UHGV virus genome: UHGV-0171999
DNA: 64,000 bases
DNA from: a virus
Strand: one strand, 5' to 3'
A program made the position numbers and the translations under genes. Under the pieces are notes generated by a model. That model was not told the DNA's origin, searched no databases, and saw nothing but the letters and a program-made list of their open reading frames with translations. Below are positions 11,289 through 64,000 of this stretch, piece by piece; the stretch's first letter is position 1, and each line of letters starts with the position of its first letter.

Positions 11289-11575
11289 ATGAAAACTTTC
11301 AAAGAATTTACTTCTACAACTACCCCGGTTTCTACTATTACTGAAGCTACTCTTACTTCTGAAGTTATTAAAGCAAATAAAGGACGAGAAGGTAAACCAA
11401 TGATTAGTTTGGTTGATGGTGAAGAAATCAAAGGTACTGTTTACCTAGGCGATGGATGGTCTGCTAAAAGGATGGTGCTACAATCGTTATCTCTCCTGCT
11501 GAAGAAACTGCGTTGTTTAAAGCTAAACACATTTCTGCGGCACATCTCAAGATTATTGCTAAAAATCTTTTGTAA
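11289..11575 (+). pseudogene. ipI: internal protein I gene with apparent -1 frameshift in an A-run at about 11466-11469
   Basis: First 60 codons read MKTFKEF...GDGWSAK; after the A-run the zero frame reads RMVLQSLS... to 11603, while the +1 frame encodes DGATIVISPAEETALFKAKHISAAHLKIIAKNLL and stops near 11575, matching recalled T4 IPI. Confidence 0.6.
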
Positions 11576-11593
11576 TAAATATTTCACAAAGTT

Positions 11594-11623
11594 GTTTACA
11601 TAGGGTTTTAGTTGTGATACTAT
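11594..11623 (+). promoter_or_regulatory. early promoter
   Basis: GTTTACA, 17 bp, TGaTACTAT; overlapped by the frameshifted ipI read-through. Confidence 0.6.
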
Positions 11624-17159: not shown

Positions 17160-17962
<803 letters not shown>

Positions 17963-18440: not shown

Positions 18441-18701
18441 ATGAAAATGTATCAAGAATTTATCATTGAAGCAGATGCCAAAGGTCCTAAATTTAAAGTT
18501 AAAGCTTTCATTGGTGATGCGGAAGACTTTGGCTCATTAAAACGTAATGGGTATTTTTTCTTAGGTGGCGATGGTAAAGAAATCAACACCTATGCAAAAC
18601 GTAGTGAAATTGCTTATGTTGTAGCAAGCCCTAAAGTAGATGTTGACGATATTGGATATGATTTTAACAACTTCGGAATTATTTCTGGCGGTAAAGCTTA
18701 A
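18441..18701 (+). CDS. internal protein (IPII-like) with capsid targeting sequence
   Basis: N-terminus MKMYQEFIIEA; 86 aa. Confidence 0.55.
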   Translation: MKMYQEFIIEADAKGPKFKVKAFIGDAEDFGSLKRNGYFFLGGDGKEINTYAKRSEIAYVVASPKVDVDDIGYDFNNFGIISGGKA

Positions 18702-18764: not shown

Positions 18765-19343
18765 ATGAAAACGTATAAAGAATTTATCGCCGAGGCCTTT
18801 GCAGGAAAAGCTCAAGGTATTAATAAGGACGAGTGGACTTATCGTGGTGGAAACGGCTTTGACCCTAAAACTGCTCCACTTGAACGATATCTAGCCACAA
18901 AAGCTTCTGATTTTAAAGCCTTCGCTTGGGAAGGACTTCGCTGGCGTAACGATCTAAATATTGAAGTTGACGGACTTAAATTTGCTCATATTGAAGATGT
19001 TGTTGCTAGTAACTTAGACGCAGCTTTTGTTAAAGCCGACAGTGACCTTCGTCGCTGGAATTTAAAACTGTTCTCTAAACAAAAAGGCCCGAAGTTTGTG
19101 CCTAAAGCAGGTAAATGGGTTATTGATAATAAATTAGCTAAGGCTGTCAACTACGCCGGTCTTGAATTTGCCAAGCATAAATCATCATGGAAAGGTCTTG
19201 ATGCAATGGCTTTCCGTAAAGAATTTGCCGATGTTATGGCTAAAGGCGGCTTTAAGGCAGAAATAGATACCTCTAAAGGTACGTTTAAAGACGCTAATGT
19301 TCAGTACGCTTACGCCGTTGCTAATGCGGCCCGTGGTAATTAA
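18765..19343 (+). CDS. internal protein (IPIII-like) with capsid targeting sequence
   Basis: N-terminus MKTYKEFIAEA; 192 aa, lysine/alanine rich. Confidence 0.6.
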   Translation: MKTYKEFIAEAFAGKAQGINKDEWTYRGGNGFDPKTAPLERYLATKASDFKAFAWEGLRWRNDLNIEVDGLKFAHIEDVVASNLDAAFVKADSDLRRWNLKLFSKQKGPKFVPKAGKWVIDNKLAKAVNYAGLEFAKHKSSWKGLDAMAFRKEFADVMAKGGFKAEIDTSKGTFKDANVQYAYAVANAARGN

Positions 19344-24744: not shown

Positions 24745-24752
24745 TATAAATA
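24745..24752 (+). promoter_or_regulatory. late promoter TATAAATA
   Basis: TATAAATA about 26 nt upstream of ATG 24778. Confidence 0.45.
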
Positions 24753-61334: not shown

Positions 61335-61517
61335 ATGGAATTAGTAAAGGTAGTTTTTATGGGGTGGTTTAAGAATGAAAGCATGTTTACTAAAGAAATC
61401 ACAATGATGAAAGATGACGTTCAATGGGCTACTACTCAATATGCTGAAGTTAATAAAGCGCTAGTTAAAGCTTTCATTGATGACAAGAAAGTATGCGAAG
61501 TTGATTGCCGAGGATAA
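61335..61517 (+). CDS. dmd: Dmd, antitoxin against host RnlA/LsoA RNases (gene 61.5)
   Basis: 60-aa ORF MELVKVVFMGWFKNESMFTKEITMMKDDVQW...; matches recalled T4 Dmd. Confidence 0.8.
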   Translation: MELVKVVFMGWFKNESMFTKEITMMKDDVQWATTQYAEVNKALVKAFIDDKKVCEVDCRG

Positions 61518-61518
61518 T

Positions 61519-61761
61519 ATGCATATTGTTTTATTTAAACCTACTCCGTATAACGTCAGGAAAAATACGCAATTCAAAGCACTTGTTGCAGATACGTGGG
61601 AATTGGTGTTAGATATTCCAGCAGAAGAAAGTCCTCCATTTGGTCGAGTGGAATTTATTAAGTTTGCTGTTCGCCCTACGAAGCGACAGATTCGTCAATG
61701 CAAAAGATACTTTCGTAAAATCGTCAAGTTAGAGAAACGGTTATTGATGCTAGTAAAATAG
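61519..61761 (+). CDS. hypothetical basic protein
   Basis: ORF 61477-61761 with probable start at Met 61519. Confidence 0.45.
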   Translation: MHIVLFKPTPYNVRKNTQFKALVADTWELVLDIPAEESPPFGRVEFIKFAVRPTKRQIRQCKRYFRKIVKLEKRLLMLVK

Positions 61762-61763
61762 TA

Positions 61764-61793
61764 GTTTACAAGCTGATAGAGTTGTGTTATAGT
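61764..61793 (+). promoter_or_regulatory. early promoter
   Basis: GTTTACA, 17 bp, TGtTATAGT. Confidence 0.55.
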
Positions 61794-61824
61794 AATTCTA
61801 TCAGCTAATCGCGGAGAAAAGAAA

Positions 61825-62079
61825 ATGATGCTAGTTAATAGAGAATATCAGTTTAAATCAGAAGAAGATTTGGAAAAATTCGCAAGTGGTTGTGAACTGA
61901 ATAGACGCACAGCTAAAGTCATAGGATTAAAACCCTTTACAGTTCTAGATTGTGAAGTTTCTAAATTCCGCAGAGGGTGTTCTATTAGCGGTCATGCTCT
62001 GGTTGATGGGAATACATTTTTCTTTGTTTTTAGCGTCAGAGAACTTTTATTGATTAACGAACTTGAGGAAATAAAATAG
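61825..62079 (+). CDS. hypothetical protein
   Basis: 84-aa ORF. Confidence 0.45.
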   Translation: MMLVNREYQFKSEEDLEKFASGCELNRRTAKVIGLKPFTVLDCEVSKFRRGCSISGHALVDGNTFFFVFSVRELLLINELEEIK

Positions 62080-62107
62080 TTTACTTTTGTTTTAAACATG
62101 TTATTAT
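62079..62107 (+). promoter_or_regulatory. early promoter
   Basis: GTTTACT, about 16-17 bp, TGtTATTAT. Confidence 0.5.
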
Positions 62108-62143
62108 AGACCTATCAAAACAAACGAGTAAATGGAGAACAAA

Positions 62144-62326
62144 ATGTCTAAAGTATCAGGTTATCAATTATTAACACAAGAACAACGTTCAGAGATGGAT
62201 TCTTTACAAGAACGGTGTCAGCATAGAAATAACGCACTTGATTCATTTTTATTAGTTGAATATGAAAACTTGTGCTCTAGACTTGAAAAAGAATATGTTC
62301 ATCAACATGAAGGAGGAGAAGAATGA
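62144..62326 (+). CDS. hypothetical small protein
   Basis: ORF 62132-62326 with Met at 62144. Confidence 0.4.
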   Translation: MSKVSGYQLLTQEQRSEMDSLQERCQHRNNALDSFLLVEYENLCSRLEKEYVHQHEGGEE

Positions 62327-62429: not shown

Positions 62430-62723
62430 ATGAAAAAATTTATCTTTGCTGCAATTTTTGCTTTATCTTCTTGCGCTGCCCAGCCTGCCATGGCAGGTTA
62501 TGACAAAGATTTATGTGAATGGTCTATGACTGCAGATCAGACTGAGGTTGAAACTCAAATTGAAGCAGATATTATGAATATCGTTGAGCGTGATCGCCCT
62601 GAAATGAAAGCTGAAGTGCAAAAACAGCTTAAATCTGGCGGGGTAATGCAGTATAATTACGTTCTGTATTGCGATAAAAACTTCAATAATAAAAATATCA
62701 TCGCTGAAGTGGTAGGTGAATAA
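62430..62723 (+). CDS. sp: Spackle-like periplasmic protein (superinfection exclusion, gene 61.3 position)
   Basis: 97-aa ORF with 22-aa signal peptide MKKFIFAAIFALSSCAAQPAMA; size and location as recalled for T4 Spackle. Confidence 0.6.
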   Translation: MKKFIFAAIFALSSCAAQPAMAGYDKDLCEWSMTADQTEVETQIEADIMNIVERDRPEMKAEVQKQLKSGGVMQYNYVLYCDKNFNNKNIIAEVVGE

Positions 62724-63349
62724 TGCTTTATCAAATGCACAAGTGCAAAGATACATACAAATATAAAGGTGCCCAGTGTTATATCATTAATCGTGAAAAC
62801 GCGGGTCCAGGTCATTCGCATCAATCACGGTTTGTATTCGTTAAAAACAATGAAATTATAGCAGTTGCTAATTACATGCTTGTGACTAATGATGTTAATC
62901 CGGTGCCTTTTACATATTATAATCTAATGGATTTGGCGTACGATTATAATTGGTTTAATCATGACACTTTGGCTCATATTGAAGGCGTAGGATTTGACAT
63001 CTCTTATTCTAGTTACTCGTTGTGTCCTATGAGCCGAGCTCATAGAGAGCCTGAATATTTTTCATTTCGTCGGCGTGTAGACTTTAAACGCAGTACAGAG
63101 TATGTCGGTGGAATCTTTGTTAAAGATAATCGAATTACTCGCATTATTTATCCTTTGGGTTGTGGTCAAAAAGATATTGATGTTGATTTAGACTTTACTG
63201 AAAACGTCATTAATCATATTGCTTCTGTGTATTTTGATATTGATCACAAAATTGTAATATGTGGATATGAATTACCATCAGAAAAACAGTCTAAAATAGA
63301 TGTTTCTATTGATGACCAAATTTTTAATGCTTTTATGAATAGAGGTTAA
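62723..63349 (+). CDS. hypothetical protein (61.1 position)
   Basis: 208-aa ORF, ATGC-coupled. Confidence 0.5.
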   Translation: MLYQMHKCKDTYKYKGAQCYIINRENAGPGHSHQSRFVFVKNNEIIAVANYMLVTNDVNPVPFTYYNLMDLAYDYNWFNHDTLAHIEGVGFDISYSSYSLCPMSRAHREPEYFSFRRRVDFKRSTEYVGGIFVKDNRITRIIYPLGCGQKDIDVDLDFTENVINHIASVYFDIDHKIVICGYELPSEKQSKIDVSIDDQIFNAFMNRG

Positions 63350-63350
63350 T

Positions 63351-63515
63351 ATGAAAACATATAAAGAATTTATTAAAGAAGATATGGTTGCTGGAGATTC
63401 AGGTGGTAATCCTGAAAATATCTCTACTGGAACAACATCAGGTGCTGTAGTAAATAAAGGTCCTGAACAGATTCCTAAAAAGAAAAAAGAGGAATCTAAA
63501 GAAAAAGAAGAGTAA
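63351..63515 (+). CDS. small lysine/glutamate-rich protein with IP-type capsid targeting sequence
   Basis: 54-aa ORF (below the 60-aa track cutoff) MKTYKEFIKEDMVAG...; SD aggaggt upstream; abuts gene 61. Confidence 0.45.
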   Translation: MKTYKEFIKEDMVAGDSGGNPENISTGTTSGAVVNKGPEQIPKKKKEESKEKEE

Positions 63516-63517
63516 AA

Positions 63518-64000
63518 ATGTCATCAATACCTTGGATTGATAATGAGTTTGCATACCGTGCATTAGCTCATTTACCTAAATTCGCACAAGTAAATAATAG
63601 TTCAACTTTTAAATTACGGTTTAGATGCCCTGTTTGTGGAGATTCAAAAACCGACCAAAATAAAGCCCGTGGATGGTATTATGGTGATAATAATGAAGGA
63701 AATATTCATTGTTATAACTGTAACTATCATGCACCAATCGAAATATATTTAAAGGAGTTTGAACCTGATTTATATCGTGAGTATATCTTTGAAATAAGAA
63801 AAGAAAAAGGTAAAAGTCGTCCAGTAGAAAAACCTAAAGAACTTCCTAAACAGCCTGAGAAGAAAATAATTAAATCTCTTCCGTCATGCGTTAGATTAGA
63901 TAAATTGGCGGAAGACCACCCAATTATAAAATATGTAAAAGCTCGTTGTATTCCAAAGGATAAATGGAAATATCTTTGGTTTACAACTGAATGGCCTAAA
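63518..64000 (+). CDS. 61: DNA primase gp61, partial (3' end beyond window end)
   Basis: MSSIPWIDNEFAYRALAHLPKF...CPVCGDS...CYNCNYH zinc-ribbon N-terminus; open to window end. Confidence 0.9.
   Translation, partial: MSSIPWIDNEFAYRALAHLPKFAQVNNSSTFKLRFRCPVCGDSKTDQNKARGWYYGDNNEGNIHCYNCNYHAPIEIYLKEFEPDLYREYIFEIRKEKGKSRPVEKPKELPKQPEKKIIKSLPSCVRLDKLAEDHPIIKYVKARCIPKDKWKYLWFTTEWPK

Follow-up and report, generated by a model that had tools for sequence, protein, structure and literature searches.

Gene 61.1 of this T4-like phage encodes a protein of 54 residues that, as read from its alignments, is built of three parts: a leader that resembles a capsid targeting sequence (CTS) as well as the P-side of the maturation site of gp23, a copy of the N-fist of this major capsid protein, and a lysine-rich tail. 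We tentatively propose that this protein is a prohead-targeted mimic of the gp23 N-terminus, which would be cut by gp21 after Glu10 to leave a peptide of the N-fist plus the basic tail; we give this proposal somewhat less than an even chance. Few assembly pathways have been studied as thoroughly as that of the T4 head, yet 61.1, kept in ~1,500 relatives, is without an assigned function. A cleaved, prohead-targeted N-fist copy would be a new component of this head. Such a copy would further hint at an origin of the CTS, which is widely used for loading foreign proteins into T4 heads (vaccines, delivery vectors), and could explain a gene often mislabeled “major capsid protein” in databases. Should the proposal fail, the constant association with the primase gene would point to a replication accessory.

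Gene 61.1 and Its Genomic Context

The window, i.e., the whole stretch of 64,000 nucleotides that was analyzed, belongs to a Tequatrovirus and is ~97.6% identical to many sequenced T4-like phages. The features around 61.1 are the following:

62723–63349, plus strand: gene 61.2, encoding AdfA (anti-DarT factor A; Pfam PF23813, E = 1.5e-135), with its stop 1 nt before the 61.1 ATG
63342–63345, plus strand: Shine–Dalgarno sequence GAGG, 5 nt upstream of the 61.1 ATG and within the 3' end of gene 61.2
63351–63515, plus strand: gene 61.1, with ATG, 54 codons and TAA (T4 annotation NP_049649.1, phrog_1823, dN/dS)
63351–63380, plus strand: 61.1 leader MKTYKEFIKE, codons 1–10 (likeness to an internal-protein-type CTS, gp23 alignment)
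63372–63380, plus strand: I-K-E, codons 8–10, predicted gp21 cleavage motif (alignment with gp23 Glu65)
63381–63464, plus strand: codons 11–38, DMVAGDSGGNPENISTGTTSGAVVNKGP, copy of the gp23* N-fist plus Gly-Pro (BLASTP, hhalign, PDB profile search)
63465–63512, plus strand: codons 39–54, EQIPKKKKEESKEKEE, lysine-rich, then acidic tail (alignments)
63518–64000, plus strand: 5' part of primase gene 61, running off the window, with its ATG 2 nt past the 61.1 stop

Translated from the window, gene 61.1 reads MKTYKEFIKEDMVAGDSGGNPENISTGTTSGAVVNKGPEQIPKKKKEESKEKEE. The coordinates and the MKTYKEFIKE start of the 54-codon frame reported in the initial annotation were borne out, and so was its tight coupling, with the upstream stop at 63349, one base before the ATG, and the primase ATG at 63518, two bases past the TAA. 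The frame had been described as unlisted. It is indeed missing from the ORF track, because of the 60-aa cut-off only, but it is no novelty, since T4 gene 61.1 is annotated at the identical position (NP_049649.1, “gp61.1 hypothetical protein”, 54 aa), with two residue differences. The match to phrog_1823 covers residues 1–54 (E = 7e-34), and residues 8–53 match the C-terminus of phrog_2086 (E = 2.6e-16); phrog_1823 (54 aa), phrog_2086 (156 aa) and phrog_18642 (197 aa) are all clusters without an assigned function. Gene 61.1 is a real, conserved and translated gene, already annotated in T4 and uncharacterized. In the searchable literature, gp61.1 occurs in gene-list mentions only, and no discussion of a link to the gp23 cleavage site or N-fist was found there; elsewhere, this link exists only as automated “major capsid” labels on homologues in databases.

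Past the leader, the protein had been described as Gly/Ser-rich and then Lys/Glu-rich. The composition agrees with this, as residues 11–38 contain 6 G, 3 S, 3 T and 3 N, and residues 39–54 include 6 K and 6 E. This part is not a featureless tail, however, since it holds the homologue of the gp23 maturation site and N-fist. Taken as a whole, the interpretation given in the initial annotation is partly supported.

The gene order in the window is dmd, three small ORFs (at the place of tifA in T4), spackle, 61.2, 61.1 and the primase gene. In a comparative set of 68 IMG/VR loci and reference phages, the primase gene lies downstream of 61.1 on the same strand in 68/68 loci, at a distance of at most 100 nt in 56 and of more than 100 nt in the other 12, whereas AdfA adjoins 61.1 in only 6/68. 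The order in Aeromonas phage 65 is 41-61.1-61. Because of the contrast between these two neighbors, 61.1 belongs to the core genes and goes with the primase operon; it is not the cargo of a counter-defense island. Its distribution is not that of an accessory gene traveling with counter-defense genes, as it occurs across genera and always by the primase, and the same synteny weakens a reading of the locus as an anti-defense island. T4 gene 40, annotated as a head-vertex assembly chaperone, is located in the same early replication cluster, which provides a precedent for a head-related gene at this position.

Homology to the Cleavage Site and N-Fist of gp23

Gene 61.1 was compared with T4 gp23 because some database records label its homologues “major capsid (domain-containing) protein”. 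With BLASTP, residues 2–38 of gp61.1 align with gp23 residues 57–93 in a single ungapped alignment (16/37 identical, E = 1e-8). Using 16 short-form 61.1 homologues and nine gp23 N-termini as inputs, hhalign matched the two families over 48 columns with a probability of 97.8% (E = 8.7e-13), and the long forms described below gave a similar result (97.7%, E = 1.5e-12). When the 61.1 profile was run against 177,635 distinct PDB sequences, gp23 (E = 1.3e-7) and mature gp23* (E = 6e-6) were found, with no further significant match among those sequences (next E = 2).

The first 65 residues of gp23 are removed by the prohead protease gp21 (LTE65|A66, PMC9546572). The N-fist comprises residues 66–91 of mature gp23* (PMC7136217), touches four subunits and helps to build the Soc site (PMC9958956). 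Codons 1–10 of 61.1, the leader, align with gp23 residues 56–65, the P-side of this maturation site, so that I8-K9-E10 faces L63-T64-E65 and Glu10 faces Glu65. Residues 11–36 align with the N-fist, and codons 11–38 add Gly92-Pro93. Several of the positions that are invariant in the 61.1 family (G15, D16, I24, G27 and G31) correspond to the gp23-invariant G70, D71, I79, G82 and G86, and the near-invariant E10 and P38 to the gp23-invariant E65 and P93. The motif of gp21 substrates, (L/I)-x-E, is present in gp61.1 at the position homologous to the proven site of gp23, and the predicted scissile bond would fall after Glu10, at 63380|63381.

The likeness between both proteins is therefore ungapped over the gp21 site and the 25-residue N-fist, with the P1 Glu, Gly-Asp, Ile, Gly, Gly and Gly-Pro invariant and common to both. 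A basic pair or patch comes next in gp23 as well as in 61.1, the KKKK patch of the latter aligning with MVRR of gp23. They differ in that DHGY of gp23 is replaced by [SA]GGN and in that gp61.1 is without an HK97-fold body. The similarity is confined to gp23 residues 56–101. Neither 61.1 nor its long forms matched the Pfam Gp23 model PF07068 (gp23 residues 88–517) at E up to 1; Pfam is silent on the relation because this model begins only at residue 88. The “major capsid protein” labels on 61.1 homologues in GenBank and UniRef are over-annotations.

The Leader and the Capsid Targeting Sequence

The leader was scored against the internal-protein CTS, MKTY[QK]EFI[ATN]E, together with every other stretch of 30 aa or more that opens with Met in any of the six frames of the window, 797 in all. 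Of these 797, 792 matched at four or fewer of the ten positions, and five at six or more: ipIII (10), 61.1 (9), an internal-protein-like ORF at 18441 (8), ipII (7) and ipI (6). Two of these genes serve as comparators:

17681–17962, plus strand: ipII-like internal protein (phrog_3499), with late-promoter consensus upstream at 17162 and 17175
18765–19343, plus strand: ipIII, with the CTS MKTYKEFIAE (phrog_5341, E = 1.8e-117)

Compared with the CTS of this phage's own ipIII, the leader of 61.1 is identical at 9/10 positions. Targeting is reported to depend mainly on CTS positions 4 and 7, and processing on positions 8 and 10 (Mullaney & Black 1996, as summarized in PMC9026906). The leader carries all four of these critical residues (Tyr4, Phe7, Ile8 and Glu10) and ends in an I-x-E motif of the gp21 type. 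The resemblance is far from chance and specific, since 61.1 is second best among the 797 frames and has every residue reported as critical.

The initial annotation had taken the leader for the motif that targets the internal proteins. The 9/10 match and the critical residues speak for this claim, but in the orthologues the leader is not kept as a CTS. It varies to MKTFKDFINE, to MKSFKEVMNE in JS98-like phages and to MTLLEKYKQSLSE in RB69-like phages, or is replaced by a long N-domain without an MKTY start. RB69-like, JS98-like and all long-form phages depart from the CTS at its key positions or have none. A DNA pattern scan for MKTY[QK]EFI in T4-, VR7-, JS98-, RB69-, CF1- and JD18-like contigs retrieved one to five internal-protein-type ORFs per genome, in which MKTY[QK]EFI.E is essentially invariant. 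These ORFs have A, T or N at position 9 and A, S or T at P1', where 61.1 has Lys9 and Asp. Based on this comparison of sequences, the exact CTS look-alike is limited to Tequatrovirus and a few relatives, and the 61.1 leader appears less constrained than true CTSs; it is not conserved in orthologues as the CTS of the ip genes is across genera.

With respect to T4 IPI, IPII and IPIII, 61.1 is thus alike in its MKTYKEFIKE leader with an aromatic residue at position 4, Phe7, Ile8 and Glu10, in the I-x-E end of this leader, in its small basic product and in an RNA classed as early. It is unlike them in its place outside the ip locus, the lack of a late promoter, Lys9 and the Asp at P1', and in the loss of the CTS among its orthologues, while the internal proteins of the same genomes keep theirs. 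The body of gp61.1 is a copy of a gp23 fragment and not a folded effector such as IPI*. The T4 internal proteins are packaged and processed by gp21, as gp61.1 would be in the mechanism proposed below.

In the alignment, CTS positions 4, 7, 8 and 10 coincide with F59, F62, L63 and E65 of gp23. The internal-protein CTS may therefore itself imitate the C-terminal end of this propeptide of gp23. At the DNA level, the first 24 nt of 61.1 and ipIII are identical at 22/24 positions, while the DNA upstream is unrelated. This identity could stem from preferred AT-rich codons, and recombination with an ip gene is only one possible origin of the leader.

Selection, Distribution and Long Forms

For 16 distinct short-form genes, the dN/dS of the complete gene was 0.087; the core alone gave 0.077 and the leader 0.27. 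Synonymous sites were close to saturated (dS ~1.0). These values indicate that 61.1 is under strong purifying selection. A tblastn search located the gene in 1,486 records of phages whose hosts include Escherichia, Klebsiella, Acinetobacter, Aeromonas and Vibrio. The initial annotation had made its proposal depend on conservation in relatives, and ~1,500 T4-like phage records, together with purifying selection, document such conservation. The gp23 fragment that includes the N-fist part aligned at a coverage of at least 80% in 1,490 records, whereas cyanophage and other distant capsid proteins aligned to it only from about residue 82–94 on. The parallel between the two record counts is crude, though suggestive.

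Short forms of 61.1 (52–64 aa) occur in T4-, VR5/VR7-, JS98-, JD18-, RB69- and RB49-like phages. Most other genera have long forms (121–177 aa) with an additional N-domain of ~100 residues and no MKTY start; their carriers include S16/CF1-like, RB16/RB43-like, KP15-like, Acinetobacter, Aeromonas and KVP40-like phages. A common pattern runs through all of these forms, from phages and IMG/VR alike, and consists of hydrophobic-x-E, [DEA]MVAGD[SA]GG...I[AS]xGxT[ST]G...GP and a basic patch. Exceptions are a few database sequences with D for E or without GP. In the long forms, hydrophobic-x-E stands at the junction of the N-domain and the core, ahead of MVAGD. The basic patch of the tail is kept in nearly all forms, while the remainder is variable, and in the T6-type variant (P0002) the tail is frameshifted yet basic. 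The occurrence of the cleavable module behind a ~100-residue N-domain in most genera suggests that the putative cleavage site and the N-fist copy form the ancient functional core, the MKTY leader being the presentation used by one lineage.

AlphaFold modeled the N-domain of a long form as helical (pLDDT 80–88), with a disordered core and tail (pLDDT < 50). For the short form, the mean pLDDT was 60 and the pTM 0.18, so the 54-aa protein is predicted to be mostly disordered. Such predicted disorder of the lone core is as would be expected for a docking peptide. Searches of Pfam and NCBIfam assigned neither 61.1 nor the N-domain of the long forms to a family, and a Foldseek search of the long form against the PDB returned nothing significant (best E = 0.94). 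The N-domain family comprises 1,720 cluster representatives at E ≤ 1e-3, many with different C-termini, and links to phrog_18642. Next to genes of the distant N-domain proteins, which lie on short contigs, an upstream DUF7207 gene was the sole recurrent context feature.

The layout of the long forms, a ~100-residue N-domain followed by an x-x-E site, recalls giant-phage head proteins (SPN3US gp50, gp53 and gp54; phiKZ-like phages). According to PMC5694885, such head proteins have cleavable propeptides of >100 residues. This is an analogy of layout only, as no relation in sequence or fold between these propeptides and long-form 61.1 was found.

Expression and Packaging

In a T4 multi-omics study (PMC9697503), the 61.1 mRNA is classed as early and the protein has no class, i.e., it was not quantified; ipI, ipII and ipIII are all listed there as “early RNA, late protein”. 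A plus-strand scan of the window for the late-promoter consensus TATAAATA found none near 61.1, the nearest being at 24745. The two copies at 17162 and 17175 are located upstream of ipII/ipIII, so 61.1 lacks the late promoter that goes with T4-type internal proteins. A scan for sigma-70 promoters gave background level. In the accessible portions of the text and supplements of a mass-spectrometry study of T4 head proteins (PMC5694885), 61.1 was not found. This absence speaks against packaging without deciding the matter, since a product of 4.5 kDa yields few tryptic peptides and is easily missed.

Possible Role of gp61.1

In the proposed mechanism, gp61.1 would act as a mimic of the gp23 N-terminus. 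Its leader and gp23-like junction would bring it into the core of the assembling prohead. Before the prohead expands, residues 66–105 of gp23 are disordered, and they are believed to be located in its interior, where they touch the scaffold (PMC9546572). In the prohead, gp21 would cut gp61.1 after Glu10, at the position homologous to Glu65|Ala66 of gp23. The product would be a peptide of 44 residues, made of the N-fist module and the basic tail and beginning at Asp11 with DMVAGDSGGNPENIS[T/I]GTTSGAVVNK. This peptide might stay in the head, docked where the N-fist or DNA binds, or exit together with the cleaved scaffold. Most other T4-like genera would present this cleavable module behind the helical N-domain of ~100 residues and not behind a short leader. 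A broader version is more doubtful: that the whole 61.1 family consists of ancient mimics of the phages' own capsid N-terminus, either small proteins or C-terminal modules of larger ones, which enter the prohead and are cut to a peptide of N-fist and basic tail that serves structure or touches DNA, with the CTS derived from, or mimicking, the end of the gp23 propeptide.

The early mRNA, the lack of a late promoter, the lack of protein detection and the variable leader all argue against a cargo of the prohead, and the universal linkage to the primase gene could point to a replication-linked role instead. In that case, gp61.1 would be a cytoplasmic early protein of the replication module, whose gp23-like motif recognizes a protein that nascent gp23 binds as well, for example a chaperone or a translation factor, and would not be a signal for the prohead. 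It might aid primase/helicase loading or bind DNA with its basic tail. We regard this as a possible, though rather unlikely, explanation. Besides the early transcription without a late promoter, it would account for the primase gene downstream on the same strand in every locus, mostly within 100 nt, for the order in phage 65 and for the basic patch in nearly all forms; moreover, according to a review, EF-Tu is held more stably by ~100 residues from the first quarter of gp23 than by the Gol peptide on its own (PMC3014915). It does not account, however, for a homology that sets in precisely at the gp21 motif, with P3 and P1 kept, or for the agreement of T4-type leaders with the CTS at each of the four critical positions. 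T4-like replication modules are inherited as a block, which makes the linkage by itself weak evidence, and gene 40 belongs to the same cluster. No replication-related domain was found in gp61.1 by Pfam, NCBIfam or fold search.

The homology to gp23 and the common invariant positions would also fit a modulator of head assembly that is not packaged. As a free mimic, gp61.1 would compete for gp21, the scaffold or the docking sites of the N-fist, possibly as a pseudo-substrate or timer of gp21, and would tune maturation or expansion. The contacts of the N-fist with four subunits and its part in the Soc site (PMC9958956) are in line with such an effect, as are the gp23 N-terminal mutations A66D, A94V and G97S, which change head length (PMC9546572). 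T4 already has an annotated gp21 inhibitor, Inh. Nevertheless, this role is unlikely: 61.1 is expressed early, ahead of gp23, and has no known phenotype, and since gp21 is thought to be active only within completed proheads (PMC9546572), an interaction would need prohead entry.

A third explanation sees in gp61.1 an anti-defense decoy, an early copy of the capsid N-terminus that blocks a host sensor recognizing gp23. In T4-type phages, the gene lies beside the counter-defense genes dmd, tifA (61.4) and adfA (61.2), and capsid-sensing defenses exist. Yet these neighbors vary while the primase linkage does not, and 61.1 is kept across very different hosts, unlike typical accessory anti-defense genes, which makes a decoy quite improbable. 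In addition, gp61.1 has no apparent Gol core. Gol is the most conserved part of gp23 according to a review (PMC3014915). The invariant block RRAIPNLIAFDICGVQP of the gp23 alignment, the apparent Gol core, begins where the similarity to 61.1 stops; a Lit/Gol decoy is ruled out by this position downstream of the 61.1-like segment. Finally, 61.1 might be a leftover piece of gene 23 whose peptide has no function and which is retained solely to couple translation to that of the primase. Such a relic would fit the spacing of 1 nt and 2 nt and a primase ribosome-binding region inside the end of 61.1, but is very improbable given a dN/dS of 0.09 at dS ~1.0, a core near invariant across genera, long forms included, and 12/68 loci with the primase gene more than 100 nt away.

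Comparison of 61.1 with the Capsid Protein of the Same Phage

By eye, several 61.1/gp23 pairs appeared to co-vary. Lineage-specific co-evolution or gene conversion between the two genes was not borne out by an exhaustive permutation over eight lineages, in which the excess likeness of cognate over non-cognate pairs did not reach significance (p = 0.11); some of these pairs were matched at the genus level only, and the Vibrio pair may differ in genus.

In pelagiphage HTVC008M, the 61.1 family is split into adjacent ORFs. An ORF starting with MKTFTDF... contains EDIANVAGDGAVSMPP...KKKK, and the capsid protein of this phage has ...LGEIANVTGSAVANWDP...VRR (GEIANVTGSAV...VRR) at the equivalent place, the matching stretch of the ORF being EDIANVAGDGAV. 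When the ORF and the capsid protein are aligned over their whole length, this match does not stand out. In shuffles, 16/5,000 reached the observed score, for segments that were picked by position after the match had been seen. HTVC008M thus gives a weak hint that the mimicry may follow each phage's own capsid protein.

Internal-protein genes and their targeting signal

The capsid targeting sequence (CTS) of the T4 internal proteins, MKTY[QK]EFI[ATN]E, is near-invariant across several Tevenvirinae genera, where it was found on 1-5 ORFs per genome (IMG/VR contigs L092-L171). The ORFs carrying it in these contigs are unrelated to each other apart from the CTS. Such invariance on otherwise unrelated ORFs shows how strongly this signal is constrained. 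Two internal-protein loci of the window are listed here.

18441..18701 (+): 86-aa ORF starting with MKMYQEFIIE (CTS score 8/10); phrog_2667 'internal head protein', E=4.9e-20
11289..11603 (+): ipI-like gene, frameshifted; Pfam IPI_T4

The 86-aa ORF, flanked by an ipII-like gene and ipIII, is a further internal-protein gene. In the ipI-like gene, frame 0 continues past ...GDGWSAK into an unrelated tail, and the usual IPI C-terminus (KDGATIVISPAEETALFKAKHISAAHLKIIAKNLL) is found in a different frame. The break coincides with an A-run (GCTAAAAGGATGG, near 11465) and reflects either a sequencing error or a pseudogene.

Tail and N-domain of gp61.1

The T6-type gp61.1 (protein P0002) is 62 aa long. 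In T6 and its relatives, the tail after PKKKK is read in a different frame, is still basic and is 8 residues longer, and should therefore overlap the primase start. The precise sequence of the 61.1 tail thus seems dispensable.

The long-form gp61.1 carries an additional helical N-domain of ~100 aa with the motif W.AY..GIID..G...P.T..E...Y.PFH..R..KR.

L005:1174-1665, L009:115-591, L004:1183-1662 and proteins P0099-P0245: loci and proteins for the N-domain of long-form gp61.1

This domain, which has neither a model in Pfam nor a fold match in the PDB, belongs to a large uncharacterised family of 1,720 cluster representatives. Many of these have unrelated C-termini, and one has a DGHH-containing stretch that by eye resembles ParB. 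On metagenomic contigs, a DUF7207 gene repeatedly lies upstream of the family genes.

In Pelagibacter phage HTVC008M, the 61.1-type N-domain has an ORF of its own; two genes downstream of it lies a 359-aa ORF that starts with MKTFTDF and contains EDIANVAGDGAV...KKKK, a stretch similar to the N-terminus of the phage's own capsid protein, GEIANVTGSAV...VRR.

L212:3459-4538 and L213:24222-25484: HTVC008M regions compared (359-aa ORF and capsid protein)

Counter-defence island

The dmd-spackle interval, which holds only 61.4/tifA in T4 and three small ORFs here, is a variable slot of the counter-defence island.

61477..62326 (+): three small ORFs; phrog_2375, phrog_2980 'goF mRNA metabolism modulator' and phrog_37915
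62723..63349 (+): gene 61.2, full-length AdfA (anti-DarT factor A); Pfam PF23813, E=1.5e-135

AdfA accompanies 61.1 in only 6 of the 68 related loci.
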